A stretch of 55,134 bases of DNA from Verrucomicrobiota bacterium (GCA_041167305.1 JBEEHI010000138.1:1-55134); one strand, 5' to 3'. Shown: positions 21,727 to 37,164, counted from the first letter of the stretch. The notes: a model not told the origin generated them from the letters alone. Numbers and translations: made by a program.

Positions 21727-22201
21727 TTCGCTTCGTCTCCTTTGTCTCCTCGCCTTATTGGTTCCATTCACGGCCTGGTCGCAAGGCAGCCCGCCACCGG
21801 AAACCGATGCCTCGGCTACCGTGGAACTGCTCGCGACCGTTCCCGAAAAAGGGGCCGAGACGAAAGATCTCGGTGAAACTCTTAAGCTCAATGCTTCCGG
21901 CCCCACGTTCGTCTGGGCCAAGGTTACTTTGAACGGAGTGAAAAACGCCCAGGGACTCAGATTCTTCGTTGAATGGCAGATCAAGGATGGAAGCGACTGG
22001 CGGCCACTCCGTGCGGACCACCCGCGCAAACCGCTTGATATCAGTCTGTCATCTCCAAACTCTCCAGTTTTCCAAAAAACCAATTTGCAAAGGCTGGTTT
22101 CGCAAGAGCTGAAGCCCTCGGACAAAGGCACGCTTCGAGTACGAGTGCTATACGGGGACGACAAGGAACTGGCTCAGGACGAAGTAACGCTGGCAAAGTA
22201 A
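21707..22201 (+). CDS. secreted hypothetical protein
   Basis: 164 aa. Signal peptide MKIPALDSLRLLCLLALLVPFTAWSQG. No recognisable domain. Confidence 0.6.
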   Translation: MKIPALDSLRLLCLLALLVPFTAWSQGSPPPETDASATVELLATVPEKGAETKDLGETLKLNASGPTFVWAKVTLNGVKNAQGLRFFVEWQIKDGSDWRPLRADHPRKPLDISLSSPNSPVFQKTNLQRLVSQELKPSDKGTLRVRVLYGDDKELAQDEVTLAK

Positions 22202-22243
22202 ACGTTTGCGAGGGACCCAGGAAATCTCCCTGCCGCTCTCGGC

Positions 22244-23008
22244 GTGTCGAGAACGACCATGATCGTCCTACAATTCGACGCCGCTTATTACGAATGGGGA
22301 CTGCTTATGATCCGTTCTCTCGCCTTGCATGAGCCGCGCAAAAAGGTGCTCGCCGATACGGTGAACTTGAGCGGCGTCCAACGCGCCAGACTGAAGCAAG
22401 CGCATCCGCGCATTCTGGTCACCAGTGAAACATTGGCGAGCGAGGACTCGCTGCGCGAGGAGATGGCGCGCCGCAAGACGATGGTCTTGCAACGGGCGAT
22501 GGATACGTTCCCGGCTGAACCTTGGTTCGGGATGTTCGATGCGGACATGCTTGTGCGCCGGCCACTTCCCGACCTTTGGTCTTTGCTCGATAACCATCAG
22601 GCGGCTCTCTTCATGACCGATGGTGTTTGGCGGGGCCGTGTCTCCCCGGATGGGTTTACACCTTCCGGGATCGTGTTGGTGCGCCGCGATGGGCGGGAGC
22701 TGGTAGATAACTGGGTCAAATGGGACAGTTTTCCGAGCGAACTCTATTCGCATCAACCGGGGGATTGGTATTGGGATCAATGCACTCTGCTCCAGGCCCG
22801 GGACGAGTCGCAGGTCGATTGCGCCGTCATCCCCCTCCACCGCTTCTCTTGTAATCGTTGTTTGGGCGACGCGGCCATCTGGTCGGGCCATAGTGCAGGC
22901 AAGGAGCGCAATTACCGGTATTTTCTCATCGAGCACGAAGTGCAGCGGGTGTTCCGGTTCCATCCATCGCTCAAAGGCAGGTTTGCCTGCAATGGATCTC
23001 GAGCGTAA
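22244..23008 (+). CDS. hypothetical protein, possible nucleotide-diphospho-sugar transferase (DxD)
   Basis: GTG 22244 (alternative ATG 22259). FGMFDADMLVRRPLPDLW is DxD-like. Preferred over the antisense ORF 22268..22963. Confidence 0.45.
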   Translation: MSRTTMIVLQFDAAYYEWGLLMIRSLALHEPRKKVLADTVNLSGVQRARLKQAHPRILVTSETLASEDSLREEMARRKTMVLQRAMDTFPAEPWFGMFDADMLVRRPLPDLWSLLDNHQAALFMTDGVWRGRVSPDGFTPSGIVLVRRDGRELVDNWVKWDSFPSELYSHQPGDWYWDQCTLLQARDESQVDCAVIPLHRFSCNRCLGDAAIWSGHSAGKERNYRYFLIEHEVQRVFRFHPSLKGRFACNGSRA

Positions 23009-24019
23009 CTACGAAATGCCGACGGCAAACTGCGCTGGTCCAAGCTTCAACTTCACCCAGCGGCGGGCGTGCCGCTTTGGGACCGAAGACCAAAGCGCGA
23101 TTTCTTTCGTCAGCTCGGTCACATAATCGCGCGCCATTCTGAGGTAGTGATAATGTTCCAGGGCGAGGACGCGGCAAGCCAGCGGTGAGATGCGGCCGAT
23201 ATTTTCAACGGCACAAACGTAGTCACCGAAATTCGAACAGACAAAGCCCGCTTCAGGCGGCACGAGTTCCGGACACGCACCGCGATCGCTGCAAATGACC
23301 GGCGTCCCGGACATCAACGCTTCGGCGACCACAAGGCCAAAGGTCTCGTTGGCGAGAGTGGGAAAAAGTAAGGCGCGCGCGCCGGCAAATAGCTCCGCCT
23401 TTCTCTTGCCTGAAACGTGCCCGACATAAGTGATGCCTTCCTGCGCAAACATCTGCAAGATGGCTGGCGCCGGCGGTTGATCGGGGGAACCGCCGGCCAC
23501 CACGAGCTTGAGCCCGCAAGCACGTACCAGCGACCTCGCCACCTCGAAACCCTTAAGCTGCAAAGTAGCCATATTGGCCACGACAAAGAGAAAATAATCG
23601 CGCTTGGTTTCCGAATAAATTAGTTCGCTTGGGTCGATGCCATTGGTGACATAGCGGCGCCGATAGAACGATGACGCGTGCGCCTTGGAGACAAAAATCC
23701 AATTTCGCCGTATGTGCCGCCAGATTCGATCCCGAGGTTTACGTGGAGAATGGTAAGGACGCACCCAGGGAACGCCGCGCGTCTCCGGCGAAGTCCACGG
23801 ACTGTAGTCCTGGAGCACCATGGCATCGACGTTGTAGCGCCGCTTTCGGACGAGCTCGACACCCTCGGGCAGCCGGGTGGCGGCGCCGCCTTCGAGTTTA
23901 TAAATAACGGTGTGTCCCAGCTCGGCCAAGCCTTTCGCCAGGCAGTCTGCGATTCGGTCGGATGCCATGCCGCCGTCGCTTGCTGGATATCGGTGGCCCG
24001 AAGCGATGAGAATTTTCAT
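23009..24019 (-). CDS. glycosyltransferase family 4
   Basis: 336 aa. ETFGLVVAEALMSGTPVICSDRGACPELVPPEAGFVC. ATGA overlap with the upstream 719-aa gene. Confidence 0.85.
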   Translation of the reverse strand: MKILIASGHRYPASDGGMASDRIADCLAKGLAELGHTVIYKLEGGAATRLPEGVELVRKRRYNVDAMVLQDYSPWTSPETRGVPWVRPYHSPRKPRDRIWRHIRRNWIFVSKAHASSFYRRRYVTNGIDPSELIYSETKRDYFLFVVANMATLQLKGFEVARSLVRACGLKLVVAGGSPDQPPAPAILQMFAQEGITYVGHVSGKRKAELFAGARALLFPTLANETFGLVVAEALMSGTPVICSDRGACPELVPPEAGFVCSNFGDYVCAVENIGRISPLACRVLALEHYHYLRMARDYVTELTKEIALWSSVPKRHARRWVKLKLGPAQFAVGIS

Positions 24020-26175
24020 GCGGCCACTGCGCGCTCAGATGTGGGTGTCCCAGGCAAATACAGAAACGCGTAGCGCTTCACCACATCGCCATGTTTCTCC
24101 AGCGCGGTCAGATAATTCTCAATTACCTCCTCATCGTATTTCCGGCGCGAAAGATAGGTTTGCGTGCGCGCTTTCCATTCCGCCAGTTGAGCGCCGTCGT
24201 CGCAGGCGCCCAGATAGTCGGCCACGATCGCGTTCCAATCCCGTAGGTGGCGAAGATACGATTTCGAAAAAAGCCGCCGAACTTTCGGATCGCGCTCCAG
24301 CGCCTGGCGAGTGCGCCAGCAGGCGATCTTCATCGCTTCGTTCAGATAATCATAGCCGCGGGCGCGCTCCGCCTCCGTCACGTGATAAATCTGCGCGAGG
24401 AAAAACAGGTCGCTCCGGGCGATCTGTTTCGGGCGTCCCGGGTTGCCGCGGATGAAGCACTCGTCCAGCACCGCTGTTCTCAAGGCGCCCTGGGGCCAGA
24501 ACACCTCTTCGTCTTCCTCCGGAACAAACAGATTATCATGGTCCATGGAAAGGAGCCGCGAAGTCCATTCGCCTCGGACGAACGTGCTCTTGAGACCCAC
24601 ATTACGGCCTACGAATGATTCTCCGTAGGTAAAGCCCCCGAGGGCGAGAACCGTGCCCCAGAGCAGGCCAAGATCGGAGACCGCCCCCGCATGAAGAAGA
24701 TCCGCGCGCCGTCGGTTTTCCGGTACAGCGAAGGCCGCTGCGAGGTATTGAGCGTGATCTGCGTAGGCGACCGCGGGCGCTTGATAAATGCCCAGCACTT
24801 CATCGAGCAGCGCATCGGCGAAACGCCGCGCCTCGTCGCGGCTGTAACATTCCCGCTTCAGTCCGCGCTGAAAATAAATCTCTGCGCCTGCGTGGGAGAA
24901 ATATTTCGTGAGCGTATCGAGGCGGTAGGAAGTGGTTTGCGCGAGCAGGCCCTGGCACGGCAGAACATGGTAAAGGAAGCGGCCGGTGAGTCCCGCCTCA
25001 CCCGGCAGATGAGCGAAGTCGCGGCCGAACTGCTGGTCGAACGCGGAAATGCATTGCTTCATCTGCTGCCGCATCTCTGGATGGCCGGCGCCAAAAACTT
25101 CCGGGTCGGTAAAGTAGTCGAGCAGGTGAACGTCACGGCCCTGACACGGCACCGTTCTATAACTCGCCAGCGCGAGCAATTTGGAGATGGGGGCTTCACC
25201 GCCGTGCGCCGCGCGATAGACTTCCGAAAAGATTGCGGCGTGGTTCGATTCCCAGCGCAGGCCCGCGGTGGAAGCGCCGCCCTGTAAACGATGCGACGGC
25301 GGGACGGCTTCGCCTTTGTGGGCAAACGAAGCCGAGAGCGGGAAAGAACCGCGAAGACCCGTGCGCTTGATCTCGATTTCCAGCGAGCTGCCCGGTGGTT
25401 TCACCACGCAAACGACCGTGCCAATTGGATTCTCGAGCAGGCGATTGATCGCGGAGGAGGTCCGTTCGCAGGCCCAATAAACCCTCGCGCGCTGGCTCAG
25501 GCGCCGCACGATTTCCCGTTCATAGGCTGGCAGGTGCGACAGGTACCGCTCCGCTTCCGCCTCGCCGAGATCTTCCAGCGGGGAGGTGAGACCCGAGGAA
25601 ACTTGCAACTGCTTCCACACCCGCTCCACCACTTCCGCCGGCGTGAAAAGGTGGCGGGCGAGGGCGACTTTGCAGGGATCACGAGAGATGACGATGAAGT
25701 CGTCGAGCGCTTGGGTCGTCGTGTCAAAACCGCACAAACCGCGATGGGTTCGCTCAAGCCGGCGAAGATGGTGCCGAAATTGGACGCTGAAGGCGCGGAG
25801 TTCGGTGGAGGTGTAACCCTGCCGCAGCACGTCGGCCTGCACGCCGCGCGCGTCGGATTCCAACAATCCCAGGCTGGCGAAAAGCGAGGTGAATTCCTCA
25901 CTGGCATCGATCGGGAGCCGGAGGCATTGATTGGCCAGCATCAGGGCAGCAAACAAACGGAGGTTCCATGAAGCGCCGCCGCCGCCACGCCCGAGCCGCA
26001 CCAGCTCGAGGGCAAAACGCCGTTCGTAATGATTCAGCGCAAGGAATGCGCTGACCACATCCGCAGCGAGCGGTTCGCCGGGGAAGCGGGCGGCCACGAC
26101 CTGCGCCAAATTCGCGGGAAGCGGCGGGCCGGCCTCGCGGCGGCTGAAAATCTCGCCGGGGGGATGTGCGGGCAT
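24016..26175 (-). CDS. large hypothetical protein (719 aa), no family recognised
   Basis: Long ORF with ordinary, non-low-complexity composition, translationally coupled to the GT4. It contains only weak kinase-like strings (VVCVVKPPGSSLEIEIKRTG, SMDHDNLF). Confidence 0.6.
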   Translation of the reverse strand: MPAHPPGEIFSRREAGPPLPANLAQVVAARFPGEPLAADVVSAFLALNHYERRFALELVRLGRGGGGASWNLRLFAALMLANQCLRLPIDASEEFTSLFASLGLLESDARGVQADVLRQGYTSTELRAFSVQFRHHLRRLERTHRGLCGFDTTTQALDDFIVISRDPCKVALARHLFTPAEVVERVWKQLQVSSGLTSPLEDLGEAEAERYLSHLPAYEREIVRRLSQRARVYWACERTSSAINRLLENPIGTVVCVVKPPGSSLEIEIKRTGLRGSFPLSASFAHKGEAVPPSHRLQGGASTAGLRWESNHAAIFSEVYRAAHGGEAPISKLLALASYRTVPCQGRDVHLLDYFTDPEVFGAGHPEMRQQMKQCISAFDQQFGRDFAHLPGEAGLTGRFLYHVLPCQGLLAQTTSYRLDTLTKYFSHAGAEIYFQRGLKRECYSRDEARRFADALLDEVLGIYQAPAVAYADHAQYLAAAFAVPENRRRADLLHAGAVSDLGLLWGTVLALGGFTYGESFVGRNVGLKSTFVRGEWTSRLLSMDHDNLFVPEEDEEVFWPQGALRTAVLDECFIRGNPGRPKQIARSDLFFLAQIYHVTEAERARGYDYLNEAMKIACWRTRQALERDPKVRRLFSKSYLRHLRDWNAIVADYLGACDDGAQLAEWKARTQTYLSRRKYDEEVIENYLTALEKHGDVVKRYAFLYLPGTPTSERAVAA

Positions 26176-26272: not shown

Positions 26273-28237
26273 GTGGTTCGGAACACTCCCCAGCTCACCG
26301 GCATGATTTCGTCCTGGTCGCGCACGATGGTGATTCTCTTGGGCCTCGGGGCGCTGGCCGCCGCGGGGCCCGAACCAATCCGCGGGACATTGGAGGACAA
26401 AGGGATCCGGGTCGCGTTTGAAGTCGCGCGGGTGGCTGCGCCCGACGCGCGCGGCGAATCATTTCAGGAAGGCGACGCCGTGCGGTTTGGTTTCACCATC
26501 ACAGATTCCGCCGGAAAAGCTCCCATTCGGGGCGCGAACGCCCGCGCCTGGCTGAGCTTGCGCCGTGAGGGCGAAATCCCGGCGGCGAATGCGCCGAAAG
26601 TGAAAGCGTCGCGTTTTCTCACTGGCGGCATCTTCGGCCAGGCTGATCTCGATTTGAATTCGTTCTATGTCCTGGCTTTGAACGGTGACGCCAGCATCTC
26701 CGTGGTCGATCCGCTTTTCGGTTTTGGGAACACAAAGCTTCTCGCCCTTATTCCGCTCTCGGCAAATGGCTACGACTGGGCGCTGACGCAGGACCAGTCG
26801 AAGCTCTTCGTTTCGATTCCGGAAAAAGGGCAAATCGCAGTGATCGATACTTCCCGCTGGGAAGTGGCCAAGTACATCGAAGCGGGCCTGCGTCCCGCGC
26901 GGCTTGCACTCCAGCCCGATGAACAATATCTCTGGGCCGCCGGCAGCGAAGGCGACTCGAACACCAGCGCGGTCGCATTTCGCACCGATACTTTCGCGCC
27001 TGTGGCCCGGCTGCCCATTGGCCGCGGCAATCATGCCTTCGCGGTGACGCGCAACAGCACCTTCGTCTTCATCACCAATGGCGAAGATGATTCCATTTCA
27101 ATCATCGACACCCGGGCCCTGGCGAAAGTGAAGGAGATCAAAGTGGGCCGCGGGCCAGTGGCAGCCACCTATTCGGAGTTGGCCGATGCGCTTTATGTGT
27201 GCGTAGCCGACGCTGGTGAAATTGCGGTGGTCGATGCAAAAACCCTGACGCTGGCCAAGACCATTCGGGCGCAGACGGGCCTCGCCGACATTGCGACCGC
27301 GCCCGGCGGGCGTCATGTGCTCGCGGTGAATCGGAAAACGGACGTCGTCGAGGTGATCGATACATCGTCCAGTGAAATCATTCAGACCGGAACCGTAGGC
27401 AAGGCGCCGTTTCAAATTTCGTTTTCGCGCGACCTTGCCTACATCAACCATCTCGAAAGCACGGAAATTTTCATGCTCCCGCTCTCGCAGATCGGCCGGC
27501 GCGGCCAGCCGCTTTCGGTGGTCACCTTTCCCGCCAGTCAGCGTCCGCTCGGCGAAGCGTGGCGCGGCAGCCCCGCAGCCCGCATCGTGCCCGTGCCGGG
27601 AGAAGCCGCTGTCCTGGTGGCCGACACCCTAGATCGCGCGATCTATTTTTACAAAGAGGGAATGGCGGCACCGATGGGCACCTTCACCAATTACAAGCGG
27701 GAGCCGATGGCCGTGCAGGTGGTCGATCGCACCCTGCGCGAGCGGAGTACGCCCGGGGTTTACGATACCGTGGCCAAGCTGGGAAAGCCGGGCATTTATG
27801 ATGTCATTTTTTTTCTCGACTCGCCCAAAATCGTCGATGGCTTCGAATTAACCGTCGCGCCGAACCCCAAGCTCGAAGCCGAACGAAACGGGCCGAAAGT
27901 GGTGATCGCGCCGCTGGTTCCAACGATGCCCACGAAAGGCGGCACGACCGCGACATTTAAGTTTCGAGTAACGGACAAGCAAACCAATGAGCCGGTCACG
28001 GGTCTTCGCGATATGGTGATCGTGATCATGGCGCCGGGAAACTGGCATGAGCGCCAGGTGGCCAAAGAGGAGGGAGACGGCGTCTATGGTGTGACCGTGA
28101 CGCCGCCCGAGGCGGGAGTCTATTACGCGCACGCGCAATGCCCTTCACTTAATGTTCAATTCGGAAACCCGCATTATCCCGTCTTGCGGATTGCGCCGGC
28201 CAGCTCGGCCAGCGCCGCAGCGAAGAAGAGTGAGTAG
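26273..28237 (+). CDS. secreted YVTN-type beta-propeller repeat protein with C-terminal Ig/FixH-like domain
   Basis: GTG 26273 (alternative ATG 26303). Repeats such as KLFVSIPEKGQIAVIDTSRWEV and TFVFITNGEDDSISIIDTRALAKV. C-terminal GVYGVTVTPPEAGVYYAHAQ. Confidence 0.7.
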   Translation: MVRNTPQLTGMISSWSRTMVILLGLGALAAAGPEPIRGTLEDKGIRVAFEVARVAAPDARGESFQEGDAVRFGFTITDSAGKAPIRGANARAWLSLRREGEIPAANAPKVKASRFLTGGIFGQADLDLNSFYVLALNGDASISVVDPLFGFGNTKLLALIPLSANGYDWALTQDQSKLFVSIPEKGQIAVIDTSRWEVAKYIEAGLRPARLALQPDEQYLWAAGSEGDSNTSAVAFRTDTFAPVARLPIGRGNHAFAVTRNSTFVFITNGEDDSISIIDTRALAKVKEIKVGRGPVAATYSELADALYVCVADAGEIAVVDAKTLTLAKTIRAQTGLADIATAPGGRHVLAVNRKTDVVEVIDTSSSEIIQTGTVGKAPFQISFSRDLAYINHLESTEIFMLPLSQIGRRGQPLSVVTFPASQRPLGEAWRGSPAARIVPVPGEAAVLVADTLDRAIYFYKEGMAAPMGTFTNYKREPMAVQVVDRTLRERSTPGVYDTVAKLGKPGIYDVIFFLDSPKIVDGFELTVAPNPKLEAERNGPKVVIAPLVPTMPTKGGTTATFKFRVTDKQTNEPVTGLRDMVIVIMAPGNWHERQVAKEEGDGVYGVTVTPPEAGVYYAHAQCPSLNVQFGNPHYPVLRIAPASSASAAAKKSE

Positions 28238-28248
28238 GACCTGATGCT

Positions 28249-29319
28249 ATGTTGATAAGGCGTCTCGGAATTCTGCTAACATCGGTGCTTGTGTGGGGCC
28301 CGAGTTGGACCAACGCCGCCGCGCCGCCGCAGATCAAGGATGTCCCGGACACCATGCTGGTGGATCAGGAAGGCCGGGAGGTCCGGTTCAAAAGCGACGT
28401 GCTCGGGGAGAAGACCGTCGCCATCCAGTTCATCTTTACTACCTGCCGCGCCATCTGTCCCGTCATGGGCGCTGCTTTTGCCAAGCTGCAAGACCGGCTG
28501 GGCGATCGGCTCGACAAGGATATTTCGCTCGTCTCCATCAGCATCGATCCCGTCACCGACACGCCCGTACGGATGAAACAATGGGGCGAACAATTTGGCG
28601 CGCGCCCCGGCTGGCGTCTGCTCACCGGCGAGAAGGGGAAGATCGAAAATCTGCTCAAGGCGCTCGAAGCCACCAATCACAACGCGCCAGTGGTGCTGCT
28701 CGGAAACTTGCGCACGGGCGAATGGGTGCGCTCCTACGACGACATCACCGCGCCCGACAAACTCTACGCCCAGCTCATCGATTTGGCGGACAAGCCCTCC
28801 CAGGCGCAAGAATACTTTGCCAATACGGTTCTGACCGACCAGGACGGAAAAAAGTTACGGCTCTACGAAGATCTACTGAAGGGAAAGGTCGTAGTAGTGA
28901 ATGCTTTTTTCTCCACCTGCCGGAGCGTTTGCTTGGAGACCATGCCGACTGTGGCTGCACTTCAGGCCGTGGCAGGAGACCGCCTGGGCAAAGACGTGAA
29001 CCTTCTCTCGATCTCGGTCGATCCACTCAATGATACTCCGGCAAAACTCAAAACTTATGCGCGAGCGCTTGGGGCGAAACCGGGCTGGTATTTTCTCACG
29101 GGCGATCAGCAGGCCGTCAACGATGCGCTATACAAGTTTGGCCAGTACGTCGAAGTCAGGGAGACCCACTCGAACGTGTTCCTCATGGGAAATGACCGAA
29201 CCCGCTTGTGGAAAAAGGTGCTGGGAACTCCGCAGGTCCCAGATAAGGCGGCGAGCTTCGAAGCTATTGCGGCGATCTTCCGTTCGGTTCTGAATGATAA
29301 GGGTGAGGCTAAACCTTAG
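28249..29319 (+). CDS. tandem double SCO1/SenC-family (thioredoxin-fold copper chaperone) protein
   Basis: Signal peptide. Two copies of the SCO signature: FTTCRAICPVM...SISIDPVTDTP (CxxxC at 28444-28458) and FSTCRSVCLET...SISVDPLNDTP (CxxxC at 28918-28932). Confidence 0.8.
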   Translation: MLIRRLGILLTSVLVWGPSWTNAAAPPQIKDVPDTMLVDQEGREVRFKSDVLGEKTVAIQFIFTTCRAICPVMGAAFAKLQDRLGDRLDKDISLVSISIDPVTDTPVRMKQWGEQFGARPGWRLLTGEKGKIENLLKALEATNHNAPVVLLGNLRTGEWVRSYDDITAPDKLYAQLIDLADKPSQAQEYFANTVLTDQDGKKLRLYEDLLKGKVVVVNAFFSTCRSVCLETMPTVAALQAVAGDRLGKDVNLLSISVDPLNDTPAKLKTYARALGAKPGWYFLTGDQQAVNDALYKFGQYVEVRETHSNVFLMGNDRTRLWKKVLGTPQVPDKAASFEAIAAIFRSVLNDKGEAKP

Positions 29320-30892
29320 CCGCGTCCGGCTGGTCGTCGCGATCTTGCTCGGCGTGCTCGCACTCGCGATGGCCGGCGAGAAGACTGTCGAGCCAGAGAA
29401 GCAAGCGCCGGCCGCAGTGCGTGGACGGGAGATTTACCGGACTGGAATCCCGCTGGATGGTCCTCCCTTGACGGCGAGCGTGGGCAGTCCGGCGATGGAA
29501 GTGCCGGCCAGCATTCTAAAGTGTGTGAATTGCCACGGCCAGGATGGGCGTGGCCAGGTCGAGGGAGGCATTGCACCCGCCAATATTCGCTGGGAGGAGC
29601 TGACCAAGCCCTCCGGCAGCGGTGCGGCCGGACGCCGCCAGCGGACCGCCTATTCCAGTACGCTGCTCATTCGGGCGATCGCGTCGGGGCTGGATGCGAG
29701 CGGCAATCGACTCGATCCGGCGATGCCACGTTACCACCTCACACATGAGCAAGCGGCCGATCTGGTGGCTTACCTCGAGGTGCTCGGCCGGGAAGCAGAT
29801 CCTGGAGTGACGGAGACCAGCTTGAAGATTGGTGTTGTCCTGCCACCGGCGAGCGTCACTGGCTCCGCGCGGGCGATCCGCGAGGTCATCGCGGCCTTTG
29901 TCCTTCAAGTAAATGAGCAAGGTGGCTTTTATGGCCGGAAACTCAGGCTCTCCTTCGTCACTTCTCCGGACGATGTCGAAGCCCGCGCCGGCGCCATTCG
30001 CGACTTTGTCGAAACGGAACAGCCATTCGCCCTAATCTCCAGTTATGTGGTCGGCTGTGAAGAGGAGGTCGGCCGTTATCTTGAGGAGAACAGGATACCG
30101 CTCATCGGGCCGATCGCTCTTTACGCGAAAGACGAGCCTTCGCGGCACAGGCACGTGTTCCATTTAGTAGCGGGACTGGCGGGCCAGGGCGAAGCGCTCG
30201 GCCGCTTCGCAGCACAACTGCCCGAGTTGAGCCACTCCGCCGCCCTCATGGTGCGCCGGGAAGGCGATGACGAGATCCGCGCACTGTCGGTGACAATTGG
30301 CAAACGCCTCATGGATGGCGGATGGGTTGCAGCCCGCGACGTGGCCCTCACGGAGACTTCGACGCCAGACTGGGCCGCACTTCTACGGAGCGGGGATACT
30401 TGTTCGGTCTTTTGGTTCGCCCCGGCGAGCGGATTGGATGAGTTTTACCGCGCTGCCGTTAAGGCCGGCTCGTATCCATTTCTTTTTGCGCCGAGCGTCC
30501 TTGCCGGAAACGAACTCCTCTCAGCGCCGGCGGGCTTCGCCGGACGGATTTTTTCTTCGTTCCCGACCCTCCCCTCCGATCAGACATCCGCCGGCAGAAG
30601 CGAGCTCTTGAAGCTGGCGAGCGAAGGGCATGTTTTCGACGGCAGCTTTCCCCGGATGGCGCTCTCCTCAGCCAAACTTCTCGTGCATGGCCTGCGACAG
30701 ATGGGAAAGGAAGTCAGCCGCGAAAAACTCGTCGAAACCCTGGAGAATCTCTACGACTACAACACGGAGCAGACGCCCGCGGTTACGTTTACGCGCAATC
30801 GGCGAGTGGGCGCGGGTGGCGCACACGTGGTGGGCGTTGACGTGCAGCGAAAATCGCTTGTTCTACCCTCCACGTGGGTGCCGCTCAATTGA
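29294..30892 (+). CDS. cytochrome c domain fused to a type I periplasmic binding protein (Leu/Ile/Val-binding-like) domain
   Basis: 532 aa. Signal/anchor, then CVNCHG (29522-29536), then a PBP1-like body (KIGVVLPPASVTGSA...IPLIGP...). Confidence 0.65.
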   Translation: MIRVRLNLSRVRLVVAILLGVLALAMAGEKTVEPEKQAPAAVRGREIYRTGIPLDGPPLTASVGSPAMEVPASILKCVNCHGQDGRGQVEGGIAPANIRWEELTKPSGSGAAGRRQRTAYSSTLLIRAIASGLDASGNRLDPAMPRYHLTHEQAADLVAYLEVLGREADPGVTETSLKIGVVLPPASVTGSARAIREVIAAFVLQVNEQGGFYGRKLRLSFVTSPDDVEARAGAIRDFVETEQPFALISSYVVGCEEEVGRYLEENRIPLIGPIALYAKDEPSRHRHVFHLVAGLAGQGEALGRFAAQLPELSHSAALMVRREGDDEIRALSVTIGKRLMDGGWVAARDVALTETSTPDWAALLRSGDTCSVFWFAPASGLDEFYRAAVKAGSYPFLFAPSVLAGNELLSAPAGFAGRIFSSFPTLPSDQTSAGRSELLKLASEGHVFDGSFPRMALSSAKLLVHGLRQMGKEVSREKLVETLENLYDYNTEQTPAVTFTRNRRVGAGGAHVVGVDVQRKSLVLPSTWVPLN

Positions 30893-30898: not shown

Positions 30899-31852
30899 AT
30901 GCGTTTGATCGTCGCTGAGTTGGGAGCTTACTCGCATTTCGTCACGCGCGAGTTTTCCTATATTATCCGCGAGTTGATTGAGGCCTATGGATGGAGGCAT
31001 CTGGAGCCTTCTGCGTTGCGCGGGGGAGCAATGCGAGAGCGACTCGTCCGTCATTGCGGAGATTTCCCGGAGGTCATTCTCTTCTGGGGTGGCGAGGGCT
31101 TTCTGTGCGAACACGACCGTGAGGTTGAAAAGCTGCCCGCAGCCAAATGGTTCGTCGCGGATGACCTGCACCATCATGACTCAATGCCTTATCGGGAAAG
31201 AGCGTTCCTGCTGTGTGACACGGTTCTTGCGACTTATGCCTATCGATTTGCGGAGTATTTTCCAGACACGGCAAAGTCCAGGCGTTTGGTCTGGCTGCCC
31301 CACTCCGCCTCTCCTGATTTTGCGCTCCCGTTCAACTCCCGGGCACGGAACGAACTCCTTCTAAGCGGGGCGATGTGCAACGCTTATCCTTTAAGACAAA
31401 GGGTGAATGCTTTAAGGGAAAGCGGCTTCGAAGGGATCGTTCACCTGCCTCATCCCGGTTATCACTGTCAATACGAATACGAAGCCGACGTCCGGATAGG
31501 GCGCGCCTTTGCCAAGCGGATGTGGGAGCACCGAGCCGCATTTACCGATTGCACGGTTTTCCAATATGCCGTCGCCAAGCATTTTGAAATTCCCGCCACC
31601 GGCGCTCTTCTCGTCGCCGATGTTTCCATCGAGAAGCCTTTGGGCAAGCTGGGTTTTGTGCCCGGAGTTCATTACTTCCCGGTGAGCGGGGGAGATTTGG
31701 GAGACCGTGTACGATATCTTCTCTGCGAAGAGCATCATGCCGAGCTGGACCAAATCAGAAGGAATGGCCAGGCGCTGGTCTTGGAACGCCATCGAACGAG
31801 CCACCGCGCCAAGCTGATCAACGATCTCGCGCTCCAAACCGGCCGGTCGTGA
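30899..31852 (+). CDS. CgeB-like / GT-B glycosyltransferase-like protein
   Basis: 317 aa. The C-terminal FEIPATGALLVAD...HYFPV...LDQIRRNGQALVLERHRTSHRA resembles the CgeB-family C-terminal domain. Confidence 0.5.
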   Translation: MRLIVAELGAYSHFVTREFSYIIRELIEAYGWRHLEPSALRGGAMRERLVRHCGDFPEVILFWGGEGFLCEHDREVEKLPAAKWFVADDLHHHDSMPYRERAFLLCDTVLATYAYRFAEYFPDTAKSRRLVWLPHSASPDFALPFNSRARNELLLSGAMCNAYPLRQRVNALRESGFEGIVHLPHPGYHCQYEYEADVRIGRAFAKRMWEHRAAFTDCTVFQYAVAKHFEIPATGALLVADVSIEKPLGKLGFVPGVHYFPVSGGDLGDRVRYLLCEEHHAELDQIRRNGQALVLERHRTSHRAKLINDLALQTGRS

Positions 31853-31956: not shown

Positions 31957-32784
31957 ATGAGAAAATTGCGCACCCTTGCCCTCGCCACCAGCCTCTTCGC
32001 GTCTGCACTATTTCCCAGCGGGTGTCGCCGGCCGCAGGCGGAGCAGGTCGTCGTCACAGGCGCTAGTACTGTTTATCCCATCGTGCAGATGGCGGCGGAG
32101 GAGTTGCGCCGTACGAAGGGGCTTAACGTGATGGCTCAAGGAGGCGGGAGCACACGGGGCTTCGAAGATTGCATCGCGGGGCGCAACAGTCTCGGAGCGA
32201 TGGCCCGCGAGCTGACCCCGGAGGAAAAGGCTCAGGTACTTGTGTTCCCGATCGCCTATGATGGGGTGGGCATCGTCGTGCACGCTTCGAATCAATTCGC
32301 CGGAGTGACAACCGAGCAGCTGCAGCAAATCTATCGCAAGCAAATCACCAATTGGTCCAGCTTCGGCGGGCAAAATGCCAGCATCGTGGTGGTCCACAAA
32401 GGCGAAGGACACGCGACTCGCGAAGTCTTCATGAAGTACACCGGGCTGACCCCGGATGAGATGACCCGCTACACAGACGTGGCCGCGGGCGACAACGCCC
32501 AGGTCATCCGCGTAATCGCCAATACCCCCAACGCCATCGGCTATGTCAGCCTGGGTGAAGTGATCAAGGCAGCCGAAGCCGGCCAGCCCGTTCGTCTGGT
32601 TAAATTCAACGGCATCGAGCCGGTGATGGAGAACGTTACGAACAAGACCTATCCCCTCTTCCACCCGCTCTCTCTAATCTCCAAAGGAGAGCCGAAAGGC
32701 GGCAGCCGCGTCCTGCTGGATTTTCTGCGTAGCCCAGAGGGAAAGGCGATCATTCGCCGGGGAAATTATGTTCCGCTGGAGTAA
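31957..32784 (+). CDS. pstS: phosphate ABC transporter substrate-binding lipoprotein
   Basis: ATG 31957. Lipobox LFPSGC. GASTVYPIVQMAAEEL...GGGSTRGF...GYVSLGEV. Confidence 0.8.
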   Translation: MRKLRTLALATSLFASALFPSGCRRPQAEQVVVTGASTVYPIVQMAAEELRRTKGLNVMAQGGGSTRGFEDCIAGRNSLGAMARELTPEEKAQVLVFPIAYDGVGIVVHASNQFAGVTTEQLQQIYRKQITNWSSFGGQNASIVVVHKGEGHATREVFMKYTGLTPDEMTRYTDVAAGDNAQVIRVIANTPNAIGYVSLGEVIKAAEAGQPVRLVKFNGIEPVMENVTNKTYPLFHPLSLISKGEPKGGSRVLLDFLRSPEGKAIIRRGNYVPLE

Positions 32785-33592
32785 GACGCGTTGGTGTTGG
32801 GCGGGCGCGATGGGACTCGGCCTCGTGCCGATCCTCGCCATTTTTGCCCTGGCCATCTTTCTTTTTTGGAATGCGGCCGGGGCGTCGGTCCAGATTGGAC
32901 TCCGGGAGTTGGCGGCCACGGAATGGTCGCCTCAACAGGGCCGGTATGGAGTGGCGCTGCTCCTTGGGGGCACTTTGGCCGTGACAGCATTCGCCTTGTG
33001 TCTGGCGGTGCCGGTCGCACTCTGCGCGGCCGGTTATCTGGCCCTGTCCGCCGGGGGAAAAGTGCGGGCGGCTGCGAACGCCGCCATCGGGCTCTTGGGC
33101 GGCATTCCTTCGGTCGTCATTGGGCTCTGGGCCATGACGTGGGTCGTGCCCGTCTTTGGCAATTCGTGGATCTCCGCCTCAGTGGTGCTCGCCTTGATGA
33201 TAGTGCCGACGATAACTCTCTTGTCCGGCGCTGCGCTTCGCCTCGTTCCGGCCGACTTGCTTGAAGCTAGCCGAGCCTTGGGCATGAGCGAAGGAATTGT
33301 CTCGCGCGTCGCATTTCATCATGCGCGGTGGGGCATTTTGGGCGCGATCGTTCTGGGAACGAGCCGCGCGCTAGGGGAGGCAGTGGCCGTGAGCATGGTA
33401 GCCGGAAACGTCGCCTCCTGGCCCTCCCTTACGCGGCCGATAGCCACTTTGACGACTACTTTGATCATCGAGCTCGATGGCGCTGCGGGCTTGCACCGCA
33501 ATGCGCTTTATCTCCTCGCTTGTATCGTGCTCCTTGCAATCAGCGCGCTCAGCATTTTCGGCCGGGCTGCGCAACGCAAAGCCGGGATATGA
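32768..33592 (+). CDS. pstC: phosphate ABC transporter permease
   Basis: 274 aa multi-TM protein. EASRALGMS EAA-loop region. Its position is between pstS and pstA. Confidence 0.75.
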   Translation: MFRWSKTRWCWAGAMGLGLVPILAIFALAIFLFWNAAGASVQIGLRELAATEWSPQQGRYGVALLLGGTLAVTAFALCLAVPVALCAAGYLALSAGGKVRAAANAAIGLLGGIPSVVIGLWAMTWVVPVFGNSWISASVVLALMIVPTITLLSGAALRLVPADLLEASRALGMSEGIVSRVAFHHARWGILGAIVLGTSRALGEAVAVSMVAGNVASWPSLTRPIATLTTTLIIELDGAAGLHRNALYLLACIVLLAISALSIFGRAAQRKAGI

Positions 33593-34395
33593 TCAAACTA
33601 CTTGGCATCATTGCGACCTTGTTCATAATGGCCTTGGTAGTCTGGATGGGTTGCGATCTCTTGTATCGTGGCGCTTCCGGTCTGCACGCGGGCTATTTGT
33701 TCGAAACTCCACGGGACCTGGGGCGCTCCGGAGGAATCGCACCAATGCTGGCCAGCACCGGCATCATTGTCGGCCTGGCGACCCTTCTCGCAGCACTGGT
33801 TAGCTTACCCTTGGCAGTTGCGTACACCGAATTGGTAGCGCCGACCGGTCTCCGCACGATTGTTCGCTCGGCCCTAGATATCGGTGTCGGCGTGCCTCGG
33901 ATCGTCTGGGGACTCTTTGGAGGCGCATTCTTCGGAGGGTACTGCGGTTTCGGGTTTTCGCTTCTCTCTGGTGTCCTGACCCTGGCGTGCCTGCTGGCGC
34001 CTATTATGACCACCGGCTTCATCACCGGGCTGGAGATGGTGGAGAACGAAATACGCGAGCAGTGCGCCGCGCTCGGTGTCGACCGCTGGCAGACGGCGTG
34101 GCGTCAGGTGGTGCCTGTGGCGCTTCCCGGTCTCACAGCTCCTCTGGCGCTGGCGGCCGGGCGCGGTTGCGGCGATGCAGCAGCGCTGCTCTTTACCGCC
34201 GGTGTGGCCATGCAAATGCCATACTCACTCTTCGATCCCGGCGCCACGCTCTCAGTCTTCGTCTTCCATCTCCTAGGCACAGTGCCCGGCGGTCAAAACG
34301 CCGCCTATTCAGCCGCCGCCGTTTTATTCATCATCACGCTCGTTATTCAATTAGCCATCACGACGCTCACGCGGGAGGAGCGCTACGCCCAGTGA
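33589..34395 (+). CDS. pstA: phosphate ABC transporter permease
   Basis: ATGA overlap at 33589. 268 aa multi-TM protein. REQCAALGVDRWQTAWRQVVP. Confidence 0.75.
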   Translation: MIKLLGIIATLFIMALVVWMGCDLLYRGASGLHAGYLFETPRDLGRSGGIAPMLASTGIIVGLATLLAALVSLPLAVAYTELVAPTGLRTIVRSALDIGVGVPRIVWGLFGGAFFGGYCGFGFSLLSGVLTLACLLAPIMTTGFITGLEMVENEIREQCAALGVDRWQTAWRQVVPVALPGLTAPLALAAGRGCGDAAALLFTAGVAMQMPYSLFDPGATLSVFVFHLLGTVPGGQNAAYSAAAVLFIITLVIQLAITTLTREERYAQ

Positions 34396-35723
34396 TTACC
34401 CTTAGCTATCAAAACTTCCGGCTGTCCGTCGGCAAGACCACGATCCTGGATGGCATCGACCTGGAGCTGCTAGGACCTGGGGTAGTCGCTCTGCTCGGTC
34501 CTTCGGGCGTCGGCAAAAGCTCGCTGCTCCGCGCCACCCAACGCTTGATCGAGCATGGCCGCGATGGGTGGAGCCGCTCTGGCGACGTCCTTTTCAACGG
34601 CCAAACCGTTTTCGGGTCCACCTTCTCGAAACAGCAGCTCGCTCGTCGCATCGGTTTCATTCATCAAAGGCCGCGCATGCTCGCGGGCTCGGTGCTGGCC
34701 AACGTGGAGTTTGCCCTCAAGCATGCCACTACGCTCAAACGTAGCGCAATTCGCCGGCTTGCCGAAGAAGCGCTCGAGCAGGTGGGGCTCACTTGGGAGC
34801 TGGCCAGCCTCGATCTTGCCGCGTGGAAACTTTCCGGCGGCCAGGCGCAACGCCTCGCGATCGCGCGCGCCATCGCATTGCAGCCGGACGTGCTTCTGAT
34901 GGATGAACCCACTTCGGCACTCGATCCGCTTAAAAGGCAGCAAGTGGAGGAGATCATTCGCGTGCAGGCGCGCGCCCGGCTGATTGTGATCGTGACGCAC
35001 GAAGTTCATCTCGCCGAACGTCTGGCCGATTTCGCCGCGTTCATGTTTCGCCAGCACGGCGGCGCCCGCATTTTTGAAGCAGGTGCCGCCGCAAAAGTGT
35101 TGCGCGATCCCGCCGAGATCGCGGTGCAAGAATTCGTGCGCACCGGACGTGCGGGACGTGAGCCGGCCCATGCCTCCGTCCCGGCCCGCCATGCCTCGGA
35201 CGACTTGGAGATGGCCGCACCTGCGACCCCCTTCGGCCTGCGCTTGCTGCAGCGCGTGTATCTCTTCGTCTGCGGCGAGAACACCAGCCGATCCCCCGTG
35301 GCCCAGGCGATCTGCAACAGCGAGGTCGCGCGCCTCTTGAAACTCCAGCCTGGCGAAGGAAAACCGAAGTTCGAGGCGCTAAGTGCCGGGCTTTCCGTTT
35401 CGGCGAGCCGTCCCATATCGGCCAAGGCCGTCAGTGCGTTGCGCGAACTCGGGTGCGAGCCTCGACCCCACGTTTCGCGCGAAGTCACTCAGGAACTTGT
35501 CGAGCGCGCCGACGCCATCTATTGCATGACTGATCAGCAATGCCGGGAACTCGCGCTCCGCTTTCCCGCCGCCACCTGGAAGCTCCAACGGCTCGATCCG
35601 GTCGGCAACGTCGAAGACTCCCGCGATTCGGAGCCCGCCGATTTTCTTCGGATCGCTACCCGCATTCGCGACCTTGTCCGCTGGCGCCTGGAAAGCCAGT
35701 TTCGTTTTCCGCTAGCGGAATAG
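34392..35723 (+). CDS. pstB: phosphate-type ABC ATPase fused to a C-terminal low-molecular-weight protein-tyrosine-phosphatase/ArsC-like domain
   Basis: GTGA overlap at 34392. Walker A GPSGVGKS, LSGGQAQRLAIARA, LLMDEPTSALD. A linker follows, then VYLFVCGENTSRSPVAQAI (CX5R(S) at 35271-35294) and LDPVGNVEDS. Confidence 0.75.
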   Translation: MITLSYQNFRLSVGKTTILDGIDLELLGPGVVALLGPSGVGKSSLLRATQRLIEHGRDGWSRSGDVLFNGQTVFGSTFSKQQLARRIGFIHQRPRMLAGSVLANVEFALKHATTLKRSAIRRLAEEALEQVGLTWELASLDLAAWKLSGGQAQRLAIARAIALQPDVLLMDEPTSALDPLKRQQVEEIIRVQARARLIVIVTHEVHLAERLADFAAFMFRQHGGARIFEAGAAAKVLRDPAEIAVQEFVRTGRAGREPAHASVPARHASDDLEMAAPATPFGLRLLQRVYLFVCGENTSRSPVAQAICNSEVARLLKLQPGEGKPKFEALSAGLSVSASRPISAKAVSALRELGCEPRPHVSREVTQELVERADAIYCMTDQQCRELALRFPAATWKLQRLDPVGNVEDSRDSEPADFLRIATRIRDLVRWRLESQFRFPLAE

Positions 35724-35782
35724 CGACGCGCTGCGGCCGTTGACCGTACCGACTGCATAACTCGCTCGGGCCGATCAGCAAC

Positions 35783-35812
35783 GATGCCGGCAGTTTTTTT
35801 CTGACTGGCATC
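35783..35812. terminator. imperfect hairpin with a T7 loop downstream of pstB (weak terminator candidate)
   Basis: gatgccggcag-ttttttt-ctgactggcatc gives about 11 bp with one bulge. There is no 3' U-tract. Confidence 0.25.
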
Positions 35813-35862
35813 GCCGCGCTCAGTATGAATTCACAAGCCTACTACCTGTTAGTCAGCATTGC

Positions 35863-35885
35863 TGTGCTAGAATTTGTGCTAGAAT
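35863..35885 (+). repeat. tandem direct repeat tgtgctagaat-t-tgtgctagaat, each copy resembling an extended -10 (TGnTAnAAT)
   Basis: Read directly at 35863-35873 and 35875-35885. No ORF lies downstream on the plus strand. Confidence 0.6.
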
Positions 35886-36007
35886 GACTGCGTTTCTGCT
35901 CACCGTTCGCGCCAGAAGCGCATTTCCCTAGGACTGGCATTTTCCCCCTCGTGAAGACGCTTAGTTTTGAAATGAAAAGCGACGCTTTGAAATCGATGAT
36001 TTCGCAA

Positions 36008-36046
36008 TCCTAAGTCTGGCGCGTCTGCCAATTTCGCCACCCTGGC
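36008..36046 (-). pseudogene. 5' fragment of tRNA-Leu (anticodon TAG): acceptor 5' arm, D-arm, 5' anticodon stem and loop only
   Basis: The reverse complement reads GCCAGGG-TG-GCG-AAATTGGCAGA-CGC-G-CCAGA-CTTAGGA, matching the bacterial tRNA-Leu 5' half. The expected TCTGG 3' stem, variable arm, T-arm and acceptor 3' strand are absent. Confidence 0.7.
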
Positions 36047-36123
36047 TTCGTCGCTTTACAGCTACAACGATTGTGAAGGAAAACTATGGAAGCAGCAAGC
36101 AGAGGACGCCGGGCGGACAGTGA

Positions 36124-37164
36124 TCAGCCCCGCGGGTGCGCGAAGATTGCAAACGTGGCCGTCGCGAAAATCGCGGGAAAGATCAGTCGGCAACAACGGT
36201 CAATTGTTTTCGCCAGGCGCGCGCGATGATTTGTCTCCAGAATTGTCGTCGTTATCACCTCGATGAGAGAAAAGAAGATGAGGACCGTCCCCATCAGAAT
36301 GAACCCATCCAGCCGCGTCATGTAAGGCAGACGAGGCAGTTGGTTGTCGGTGGCGAAACGATAGGCAATCAGGGTGAGCATTGAAGTGACCGCGATGTTA
36401 ATCTGCGCGCTGGAATGGATTGGATCCATCCAGAAGACCGCCCATGACATGATCACGATCAAAACAAGCGGAAACATTACTTTTAGAATGTAATGCGATA
36501 CATTGCGGGCTGCAGTGAATTCGAAGGCGTAACTGGAATACTGATGGCCCGGTGTCAGCGCATAGAGGAGCGGCTTGAGCTCCCATTTTTCTATGGTCCA
36601 ATCCGGCAGCGTAACTGTGGCGGCGATCCCGCCAGCCCCTTTAAATCCCTCCTGAATCCAAACCTGATCCGGGATGAATATTACTTCGTCGGACTGATAC
36701 CGAACCGCGACCAGCTGAACACGAAAAGTTTGCCGATCGAATGGGAACGATTGTAATCGCAAAGGCTGCGTGAAAGCCCCGACGTAACGTTGCCGATCAG
36801 TGACCGTGCCATCGGGATCGACTTCGACAGAGTCCGGCATTTTGCGGCTGACGGAATTTGTCTCATTCACAATCCCAACGCGCGGATGCCAAATCTGTTC
36901 GAGCGGGTAGCGCACAACTCCGTTGCCGGTGTGAACCAAACGAGGATCTTTCCAGCGCAACATGACAGCTATCTCCGCGGTGAACGTCTGTTGGGCGCTG
37001 TCGATACTACTGATATCGGCGACCCACATTCCGACCGAGATTTCGGTTGGGCCGGAGTCGGCGTTTGGCCGATCAATTAACGGAGGCGTTTCTGCACTGC
37101 TCGCCAGCTGGATCGACCTCACCAGAATGCTGACGACCAATGCCGAACAGAATCTCCTATTCAT
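36124..37164 (-). CDS. prokaryotic pentameric ligand-gated ion channel (Cys-loop receptor superfamily, GLIC/ELIC-like)
   Basis: 346 aa. Signal peptide. MLRWKDPRL, FPFDRQTFRVQL, M1-M2 YILKVMFPLVLIVIMSWAVFWMDP, and four TM segments. Confidence 0.85.
   Translation of the reverse strand: MNRRFCSALVVSILVRSIQLASSAETPPLIDRPNADSGPTEISVGMWVADISSIDSAQQTFTAEIAVMLRWKDPRLVHTGNGVVRYPLEQIWHPRVGIVNETNSVSRKMPDSVEVDPDGTVTDRQRYVGAFTQPLRLQSFPFDRQTFRVQLVAVRYQSDEVIFIPDQVWIQEGFKGAGGIAATVTLPDWTIEKWELKPLLYALTPGHQYSSYAFEFTAARNVSHYILKVMFPLVLIVIMSWAVFWMDPIHSSAQINIAVTSMLTLIAYRFATDNQLPRLPYMTRLDGFILMGTVLIFFSLIEVITTTILETNHRARLAKTIDRCCRLIFPAIFATATFAIFAHPRG

Follow-up and report, generated by a model that had tools for sequence, protein, structure and literature searches.

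The locus examined here raises the question of why the ATPase subunit of an apparent phosphate importer should carry an enzyme at its C-terminus. It lies in a stretch of 55,134 nucleotides from a Verrucomicrobiota bacterium (GCA_041167305.1 JBEEHI010000138.1:1-55134), hereafter the window. A first-pass annotation of this DNA had noticed, at the end of a pstS-pstC-pstA-pstB set, a gene for a PstB-type ATP-binding cassette (ABC) ATPase fused to a domain resembling low-molecular-weight protein tyrosine phosphatases (LMW-PTPs) and arsenate reductases, and had proposed that this domain either couples transport to signalling or detoxifies arsenate that enters with phosphate. We found that the fusion is genuine, and that its phosphatase domain belongs to a subfamily whose partner, in most other lineages, is a TPT/NST-like carrier in the same gene neighbourhood. 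We consider, tentatively, that the phosphatase may act on what the transporter carries or on an intermediate of the associated pathway.

Concerning the gene itself, the reading frame comprises 443 codons with zero internal stops. It starts with a GTG codon that overlaps the TGA stop of the PstA-like gene (GTGA, 34392-34395), and its homologues start at the same residue, with MI(T/S)L. The Pst-like set is indeed compact, its four genes having overlapping ends. In a Pfam scan of this one polypeptide, residues 20-175 matched ABC_tran (E = 1.3e-22), and residues 291-427 matched positions 2-138 of the 144 in the LMWPc profile (E = 2.1e-13; 51.1 bits, the gathering cut-off being 23.2). The AlphaFold2 model, for which 43 family members were used, had a mean predicted local distance difference test score (pLDDT) of 87.8, with values above 90 for the ATPase domain (1-255) and of about 90 for the phosphatase domain (285-440), in which strands and helices follow the expected order. 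Since the pLDDT of residues 257-278, within the linker between the two domains, is below 50, we regard this segment as flexible.

The fusion is not confined to the window. In a search of 5.8 billion proteins, with matches grouped at 90% identity, the combination of ABC_tran and LMWPc was found over the full query length in 81 full-length and 2 partial clusters, at identities from 95% down to 44%. These clusters originate from JGI, ENA, NCBI and Logan assemblies. A genome scan with the phosphatase-domain profile, in which one genome represented each species, detected the fusion in 10 species genomes, belonging to Chthoniobacterales, other Verrucomicrobiota, Candidatus Entotheonella palauensis and Acidobacteriota, and an architecture first noticed in a single gene was in this way found to recur across Verrucomicrobiota, Acidobacteriota and Candidatus Entotheonella. 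The phosphatase domain of the window is 96% identical to that of a Chthoniobacterales metagenome-assembled genome. The rarity of the architecture might by itself suggest a frameshift or mis-assembly that joined two genes. However, the conservation of the single open reading frame (ORF) in the 81 full-length clusters and 10 species genomes excludes this explanation. As about 80 clusters from independent assemblies have the same architecture, the fusion is not an assembly artefact. The linker varies in length and sequence among homologues while the frame is always kept, and unfused relatives (proteins P0084-P0086 of our survey) end precisely at the boundary of the ATPase domain. The probability of an artefact is, in our judgement, negligible.

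The ATPase domain is of the PstB type, and divergent. Walker A (G36-P-S-G-x-G-K42), Q92, L147-S-G-G-Q151, D171-E172 and H203 are invariant among the 43 family members. The top NCBIfam family was PstB (TIGR00972), which leads by about 56 bits with a score of 198.9 that is below the equivalog cut-off of 343.2. Foldseek placed E. coli PstB first (9k3x_C/9k3s_C; E = 1.6e-23, template modelling (TM) score 0.92, 32% identity), followed by MetN (4.4e-20), four orders of magnitude weaker. The same pattern extends to the other components, as the PstS-, PstC-, PstA- and PstB-like proteins each have the right best NCBIfam family and all four fall below its equivalog cut-off.

The PstS-like protein was examined for its binding motif. 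Its best match among PDB structures was C. perfringens PstS (4gd5, 2.7e-36), and the N-terminal S-T and G-S motifs are retained. In E. coli PstS, the canonical phosphate ligands are T10, F11, S38, D56, R135, S139, G140 and T141. The canonical sequence R-x-D-G-S-G-T, which corresponds to E. coli R135, D137, S139, G140 and T141, with R135, S139, G140 and T141 contacting phosphate in the structure of Luecke and Quiocho, is replaced in the window by K-G-E-G-H-A-T ('HKGEGHATR', 32380-32400 region). The form K-G/A-E-G-H-A-T/L was found in 12 of 12 cluster PstS homologues that cover the motif, at about 47% identity (loci L003-L013 and L033). Because the phosphate-binding motif is altered, the ligand of the PstS-like protein may be something other than plain orthophosphate. 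The description of the system as "the Pi importer" (Pi, inorganic phosphate) was thus not upheld: all four components score below their cut-offs, the ATPase is only 32% identical to E. coli PstB, the PstS motif is replaced, and the operon is part of a larger cluster. From its sequence, the importer is best classed as a divergent Pst paralogue dedicated to that cluster. As a separate observation, the cluster PstS-like proteins have a six-residue insertion relative to two aligned solved PstS sequences, within '...IKAAEAGQPVRLV...'.

The primary structure of the phosphatase domain was then compared with that of known relatives. The CX5R-S P-loop that had been predicted is present; positions 35271-35294 encode CGENTSRS, one residue less than the string VCGENTSRS that had been assigned to them. 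The Cys and Arg of the loop are kept in 79 of the 81 full-length ABC-fused members and in all 117 parsed members of the membrane-fused class described below. At position 5 the window has Thr298, and Thr occupies this position in at least 68 of the 81 ABC-fused members. Thr at P-loop position 5 sets specificity for phospho-arginine over phospho-tyrosine in YwlE and DARP (PMC7772506). As to the acid loop, the predicted DP..G..D string exists (L401-D402-P403-V-G-N-V-E-D409), while the general-acid position aligns to D409, which precedes Ser ('VEDS'), and D402-P403 belongs instead to the family-specific RLDP motif. Among the 81 ABC-fused members the general-acid position is Asp in 57, Asn in 14 and Glu in 5. 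The family also has additional Cys residues, namely C308 in helix 1 (79/81), C378 at the end of strand beta-3 (78/79 parsed) and C384 six residues further on (68/79), and YwlE, 4egs and the Thermus LMW-PTP have no Cys at the aligned positions. Two members, P0075 and P0082, retain the C-terminal domain with degenerate P-loops (FIGSGDNSQSP and VIGPGHNRHSL) devoid of the catalytic Cys and Arg, and are likely pseudo-phosphatases judging from these residues.

A profile of 27 family domains was compared with the PDB. The best matches were the T. tengcongensis LMW-PTP (4egs, 1.2e-23) and YwlE (4pic, 1.5e-22, with YwlE structures ranging to 2e-20), together with the Thermus LMW-PTP. ArsC structures followed at least 15 orders of magnitude behind, the best being 1y1l at 4.1e-8 and others weaker. 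The domain is thus much closer to arginine phosphatases than to ArsC. With an intact P-loop, an acid position that is mostly Asp or Glu, and active phosphatases as its nearest solved relatives, it is predicted to be catalytically competent.

The same phosphatase subfamily also occurs with an entirely different partner. An exhaustive search with the phosphatase profile returned 292 clusters (50% identity) at E <= 1e-30, with lengths matching two architectures, the ABC-fused one and a membrane-fused one; the tier below these two transporter fusions consisted of Sua5/YrdC-LMWPc proteins, typical neighbours of YwlE. In the membrane-fused class (loci L014-L071, L075 and L076; proteins P0121-P0240), members of which the genome scan had also detected, the phosphatase domain forms the C-terminus of proteins of about 510 residues, the first 340 or so residues being a polytopic membrane domain without a Pfam family. 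There were 2,573 matches to this class at E <= 1e-5, mostly labelled 'hypothetical'. Its phosphatase domains are 40-52% identical to that of the window in Planctomycetota, Gemmataceae, Isosphaeraceae, Calothrix, Gammaproteobacteria, Blastocatellia and Chloracidobacterium (L014-L029), and 30-42% identical in Streptomyces and other Actinomycetota. This class has the canonical P-loop CSGNTCRSP, with Arg six residues after the beta-3 Cys. An AlphaFold2 model of P0121 from Blastocatellia (pLDDT 88) placed the C-terminal domain on YwlE structures with TM scores of 0.81-0.87, the value for 4etn being 0.87 with a root mean square deviation of 2.1 Å. Foldseek matched the membrane domain to human SLC35B1 (E = 6e-6, TM 0.73), the GDP-mannose transporter Vrg4 and the triose-phosphate/phosphate translocator. 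According to this model, the membrane domain is a 10-helix carrier of the NST/TPT branch of the drug/metabolite transporter (DMT) superfamily, and we refer to the class as DMT-LMWPc. Carriers of this branch have phosphorylated organic solutes or Pi as cargo. In a neighbour-joining tree, the ABC-fused and membrane-fused phosphatases formed one joint clade, separate from YwlE and LMW-PTP.

The two classes also have gene neighbours in common. DMT-LMWPc genes lie directly 3' of a gene resembling acyl-CoA dehydrogenases (ACAD-like), inside a module of dehydroquinase/shikimate dehydrogenase-like (DHQase/SDH-like), ACAD-like, luciferase-like monooxygenase, PhyH and glycosyltransferase genes. Outside Actinomycetota they are often found near genes for an MnxG-like oxidase, a beta-propeller, SCO1 and a cytochrome c-binding protein; in Streptomyces they are usually adjoined by DHQase/SDH-like and ACAD-like genes but by none of the other cluster genes. 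Overall, the transporter-LMWPc gene has DHQase/SDH-like and ACAD-like genes on its flanks in the majority of loci, and this applies to most Streptomyces loci (L031-L071) as well. In the window, no gene occupies the slot (6118-6140) that follows the ACAD-like gene. A tblastn search for a DMT domain found none in the window or in 14 ABC-fused or unfused loci (L001-L013 and L033), and no membrane-LMWPc gene was present among the called genes of L077-L079 and L082, which were outside the tblastn set. Conversely, PstSCA-like genes were found in none of the membrane-fused loci. In no locus were both fusion partners found.

With both classes at hand, the proposal that the domain is an arsenate reductase, which would reduce arsenate entering via the Pst-like system by means of a cysteine relay, could be weighed. 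The superfamily and the CX5R chemistry are common to the domain and ArsC, the additional Cys residues C308, C378 and C384 are near the active site, and Mycobacterium ACR3-ArsC proteins provide a precedent for an arsenate reductase fused to a transporter (PMC6514093). The distance to ArsC in the profile comparison argues against it, however, and no ArsC was among the best 50 Foldseek matches listed for the sister domain. The P-loop resembles that of phosphatases in its Thr at position 5 and its R-S-P motif, and the second Cys of the supposed relay is replaced by Arg in the DMT-fused class. In an ungapped comparison with S. aureus and B. subtilis ArsC, anchored on the conserved A-D of strand beta-3, C378 and C384 would fall at ArsC positions 80 and 86 and not at C82 and C89 (pI258), a soft argument against ArsC. 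Mn oxides produced by an MnxG-type oxidase can turn arsenite into arsenate, and a locally high arsenate concentration is conceivable. Nevertheless, arsR, arsB/acr3 or arsA-type genes were not observed in the related loci or among window ORFs of at least 200 aa, a set that excludes smaller ORFs of ArsR size. We consider arsenate detoxification very unlikely.

Taking into account that the two classes of phosphatase belong to the same LMWP clade, have flanking genes in common and never have both fusion partners in one locus, we infer a swap of transporters. A Pst-like ABC system would have displaced the DMT transporter (non-orthologous displacement), and the phosphatase would have moved onto the cytoplasmic subunit of the new transporter. 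If so, the role of the phosphatase would be tied to transport. The convergence of a PstS-family binding protein, an NST/TPT-type carrier and a phosphoryl-cleaving enzyme suggests a cargo that bears a phosphoryl group. The phosphatase would hydrolyse this group as the phosphorylated solute arrives at the cytoplasmic face, or, alternatively, would act on a phosphorylated pathway intermediate at the membrane. The bond cleaved would be P-O or, with the YwlE-type Thr, P-N, and cleavage would free Pi and trap the product in its dephosphorylated form. ACR3-ArsC (PMC6514093) offers a precedent for joining an LMWP domain to the transporter that handles its reaction partner. Of the functions considered, a transporter-tethered phosphatase acting on phosphorylated cargo or on a pathway intermediate is the one that we favour, at a confidence that stays below even. 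Its most specific form, vectorial dephosphorylation of an imported solute, possibly a phosphoramidate such as a phosphoguanidine, by a module exchanged between unrelated transporters, an SLC35/TPT-like DMT carrier and a Pst-type importer, in a widespread MnxG-linked pathway of soil bacteria, is unlikely to hold in all its parts.

Several observations weigh against this proposal. The mutual exclusion of the fusion partners was judged from about 10 kb of sequence to each side rather than from whole genomes. The neighbour-joining tree did not resolve the number of fusion origins or the order within the joint clade, and none of its 50 bootstraps recovered the ABC-fused members as monophyletic. One ABC-fused locus, L082, has an unrelated context of polyketide synthase and MMPL genes. 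The cluster, with its many glycosyltransferases, looks biosynthetic, in which case export would fit the DMT version better than import. The cargo could simply be orthophosphate, which would leave the phosphatase without anything to hydrolyse. The Asn at the general-acid position in 14 of the 81 ABC-fused members, along with the sequences of P0075 and P0082 lacking Cys and Arg, hints at a non-catalytic role in some lineages. Finally, the geometry between the domains is undefined in the AlphaFold2 model of the fusion, which has a predicted TM score of 0.59 and a disordered linker.

The phosphatase could also act on proteins. A tethered YwlE-like phosphatase specific for phosphoarginine or phosphotyrosine might have the transporter, a cluster enzyme or a regulator as its target, with the fusion providing membrane placement or stoichiometry. 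The nearest solved relatives, which are the arginine phosphatases YwlE (4pic, 4etn, 4kk3) and LMW-PTPs, would agree with this possibility, as would the presence of the arginine-phosphatase Thr in the P-loop and the fact that the next-nearest architecture, Sua5/YrdC-LMWPc, is typical of the ywlC-ywlE neighbourhood. Wzb-type LMW-PTPs are commonly found with glycan-synthesis clusters, and the window contains at least eight glycosyltransferase-type genes. On the other hand, neither the window nor the related loci yielded an McsB-type arginine kinase, a BY-kinase (Wzc) or any other protein kinase. A protein substrate would moreover leave unexplained why the partner is a transporter in both architectures and why the two partners exclude each other. 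We regard a protein phosphatase as a doubtful but serious candidate.

A third function follows from the position of the domain. The LMWP P-loop might bind Pi or a phospho-ligand in the cytoplasm and gate the ATPase by trans-inhibition, replacing PhoU. A site C-terminal to the ATPase on a flexible linker is where ABC importers have their regulatory domains, and MetN was the second-best structural match of the ATPase domain. LMW-PTP P-loops do hold phosphate or sulphate, examples being the Wzb complexes 2wja and 2wmy, and the domain persists in the two members without Cys and Arg and in those with Asn in place of the acid residue. As the first-pass annotation had remarked, the operon lacks phoU: PhoU, PhoB and PhoR domains were found neither in the scanned ORFs of the window (all plausible genes of at least 200 aa) nor in the Pfam lists of eight related loci. 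A pst operon without phoU is not unusual, an example being pstSCAB1B2 of B. subtilis. The lack of PhoR and PhoB nearby also leaves such a sensor without a signalling partner. Ligand binding alone would not need the nucleophilic Cys, yet this residue is kept in about 97% of both classes. The fold is unrelated to the known trans-inhibition domains (ACT/NIL, TOBE), the analogy being one of position only. Moreover, the same regulatory logic would be required in an unrelated DMT carrier. As the phosphatase subfamily is usually fused to this quite different transporter, signalling as a PhoU substitute becomes less likely, and we consider a sensor function quite unlikely.

The tethered phosphatase acting on cargo or a pathway intermediate, which we favour, would operate within a specialized gene cluster. 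The Pst-like genes and the fusion gene occupy the 3' end of a conserved stretch some 33 kb long, whose features are listed in Table 1.

Table 1 Features of the fusion gene and its surroundings in the window
Feature	Position	Strand	Basis or remark
DHQase/shikimate-DH-like, two small paralogous ORFs, ACAD-like, GT4, two luciferase-like monooxygenases, PhyH, GT1, GT25	2384..12854	+	Pfam, NCBIfam
MnxG-like giant multicopper oxidase, 2238 aa	13389..20105	+	NCBIfam NF041487, E = 0, 1032 bits (8 stretches), cut-off 3100
GINT1_N-like gene, glycosyltransferases, two unknown genes (254 aa; 719 aa on minus strand)	19991..26175		Pfam; co-occur with the system (co-occurrence matrix)
YVTN beta-propeller + YtkA, tandem SCO1/SenC, cytochrome c fused to Peripla_BP_6	26273..30892	+	Pfam; mnxG-type accessory genes
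Glyco_trans_1_2-like gene directly 5' of PstS-like gene	30899..31852	+	Pfam; position conserved in Chthoniobacterales and Verrucomicrobiota loci
PstS-family lipoprotein, altered anion-binding motif, lipobox LFPSGC	31957..32784	+	Pfam PBP_like_2; TIGR02136, 157.6 vs cut-off 206.6
PstC-like permease	32768..33592	+	TIGR02138, 158.8 bits vs cut-off 196.45
PstA-like permease	33592..34395	+	TIGR00974, 142.9 bits vs cut-off 193.45
PstB-like ABC ATPase + LMW-PTP/YwlE-like phosphatase, 443 aa	34392..35723	+	Uninterrupted ORF; Pfam ABC_tran + LMWPc
ABC ATPase domain, residues 1-255	34392..35156	+	Motifs, TIGR00972, Foldseek
Ala/Pro-rich linker, residues 256-283 (~28 residues)	35157..35240	+	pLDDT <50 at 257-278; variable among homologues
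LMW-PTP/YwlE-type phosphatase domain, residues 284-443	35241..35720	+	Pfam LMWPc; PDB profile matches; pLDDT ~90
P-loop C294-G-E-N-T298-S-R300-S (CX5R-S)	35271..35294	+	Direct translation
D402-P403 of family-specific 'RLDP' motif	35595..35600	+	LDP in 78/81 ABC-fused members; none at this position in YwlE/LMW-PTP
D409, predicted general acid	35616..35618	+	Aligns with YwlE D118 ('LDPFGG' loop); alignment to YwlE, Thermus LMW-PTP
Non-coding gap, 400 nt, convergent genes either side	35724..36123		No ORF; no Rfam family
Pentameric ligand-gated ion channel (Neur_chan_LBD + Neur_chan_memb)	36124..37164	-	Pfam; convergent with fusion gene

The MnxG-like protein has no Pfam match, and its homologues occur in both ABC-fused and membrane-fused loci. 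As it scores under the MnxG equivalog cut-off, it is only a putative Mn oxidase. Glycosyltransferase genes and two unknown genes are interposed between this gene and the accessory genes. In the upstream module, the DHQase-I and shikimate-DH-like parts are fused in one protein, the ACAD-like protein is closest to SfnB/DszC and the luciferase-type monooxygenases are SsuD-like; the paralogous pair of small ORFs, each about 140 aa long, was seen in no locus but the window, L075, L077 and L079. The gap that had been described after the operon is real and ends at a convergent gene, the channel gene, which is apparently unrelated to the cluster. No Rfam family was found across the whole window, and plus-strand terminator- or promoter-like sites were absent from 35500-36300.

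The arrangement can also be followed in relatives. In L003, whose fusion is 47% identical to that of the window, the MnxG-like, propeller, SCO1 and binding-protein genes lead straight into PstS, PstC, PstA and the fusion on one strand. In L077 (60% identity), the DHQase/ACAD module continues directly into the Pst-like and fusion genes, again on one strand, and the two are adjacent in L079. At least one cluster gene was present within 10 kb in 12 of 16 distinct fusion loci. The four loci without cluster genes are the decayed copy L001/L002, two with little flanking sequence (L012, on a 9.8-kb contig, and L078, whose contig ends just upstream of the operon), and L082. The cluster was found in Acidobacteriota, Verrucomicrobiota and Planctomycetota, and a smaller core of DHQase/SDH-like, ACAD-like and DMT-LMWPc genes in Streptomyces and other Actinomycetota.

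Some genes and relatives deserve separate mention. The 719-aa protein encoded on the minus strand (24016-26175) accompanies the system in the majority of Verrucomicrobiota loci and also in several from Planctomycetota and Acidobacteriota. It was considered as a kinase partner of the phosphatase and rejected, having no Pfam, NCBIfam or PDB sequence match and zero predicted transmembrane segments. The unknown genes that adjoin DMT-LMWPc in L076 and in the Streptomyces locus L063 are not its homologues. Concerning the unfused P0086, a downstream 210-aa ORF was examined as a possible split version of the fusion; it proved to be P-loop kinase-like and not LMWP. This P-loop protein (GSACAGKTS), which resembles small-molecule kinases, stands in the place of the phosphatase domain (L080 10125-10757; L081 925-1512). 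In the decayed copy (L001/L002 9534-11341), only a 156-aa PstA-like remnant precedes the fusion gene and the PstS and PstC genes are missing; in one assembly a group II intron maturase gene is found upstream of the fusion gene. In the most divergent ABC-fused subclade (P0077 and P0083), an Octopine_DH-family gene directly 3' of the fusion is followed by a convergent Arginase-family gene (L003 11285-13494 and L078 3266-5421), which places guanidino- or opine-type metabolism beside an arginine-phosphatase-like domain. Another protein, P0241 (1679 aa), has PEP-utilizers and PPDK_N domains followed by five tandem YwlE-like LMWPc domains.

We found no paper on a PstB-LMW-PTP fusion in the literature searched, in agreement with the initial impression that the architecture had not been described, and the only names that exist are automatic database labels such as 'ABC-type phosphate transport system ATPase subunit/protein-tyrosine-phosphatase'. 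A search for arsenate reductases and phosphate transporters returned the known ACR3-ArsC and ArsR-ArsC fusions only, one for mnxG and phosphate transport only transposon hits in the housekeeping pstC and phoR genes of Pseudomonas, and one for mnxG in Acidobacteria or Verrucomicrobia nothing relevant. The combination is new and its context unexpected, while what it combines is of known kinds, in that ABC ATPases can have an accessory domain at the C-terminus and LMWP domains can be fused to transporters. The fusion alone would be a curiosity; the apparent exchange of DMT and Pst partners inside a widespread MnxG-linked cluster makes it a tractable entry point. If the phosphatase does act on transported cargo, this would be a clear case of a bacterial importer whose ATPase subunit includes an enzyme that processes the cargo, and one enzyme domain would have been handed between two unrelated transporter families. 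Such a case would give an experimental handle on a family that counts more than 2,500 DMT-LMWPc proteins alongside about 80 PstB-LMWPc clusters, and on the conserved cluster, which spans about 30 kb. The fusion also carries a warning for annotation, in that such operons are labelled 'phosphate transport system' despite components below threshold and an altered binding motif. As these components score below the equivalog thresholds and the motif is changed, inferences of phosphate uptake from metagenomes may be wrong.

The system can be compared with several that are already known. E. coli PstB (9k3x/9k3s) has the same fold and motifs, and the fusion gene is likewise translationally coupled to PstS-, PstC- and PstA-type partners; unlike E. 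coli PstB, the window protein has a C-terminal extension of 190 residues and a divergent ATPase, and is accompanied by a PstS with an altered motif, without phoU, in a specialized cluster. Accessory domains following an ABC ATPase in the cytoplasm are also found in MetN (C2), ModC/CysA (TOBE) and MalK (regulatory domain). Those domains are of unrelated fold, whereas the domain of the window is predicted to have the full catalytic apparatus of an enzyme. With YwlE and the LMW-PTPs (B. subtilis, G. stearothermophilus, Thermus TT1001 and 4egs), it has in common the fold, the CX5R-S-P loop with Thr at position 5, the SAG motif and a predicted acid loop. The ABC-fused class differs in having C-G-x-N rather than C-x-G-N and a Ser after the acid Asp, which is sometimes Asn, and adds the transporter fusion, the extra conserved Cys and the RLDP motif. 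In Mycobacterium ACR3-ArsC (PMC6514093), an LMWP-superfamily domain is likewise joined to a transporter, and enzyme and transporter handle the same oxyanion. In contrast, the domain described here is YwlE-like and not of the ArsC clade, its partners are a Pst-type importer or a DMT carrier and not an ACR3 exporter, and no arsenic-resistance context was seen. The mnxG operon of P. putida GB-1 has the gene order MnxG, YVTN propeller, two SCO1/SenC and cytochrome c-binding protein (PMC11409713 Table 4). The window follows the same order, differing in that it has no SurA gene, a tandem fusion of SCO1, inserted glycosyltransferases, and the Pst-like and LMWP genes thereafter. The closest counterparts are the DMT-LMWPc proteins, which have the same LMWP subfamily, the same neighbour genes and a phosphatase that is also C-terminal and cytoplasmic, with an SLC35/TPT-like carrier rather than an ABC ATPase as its partner.

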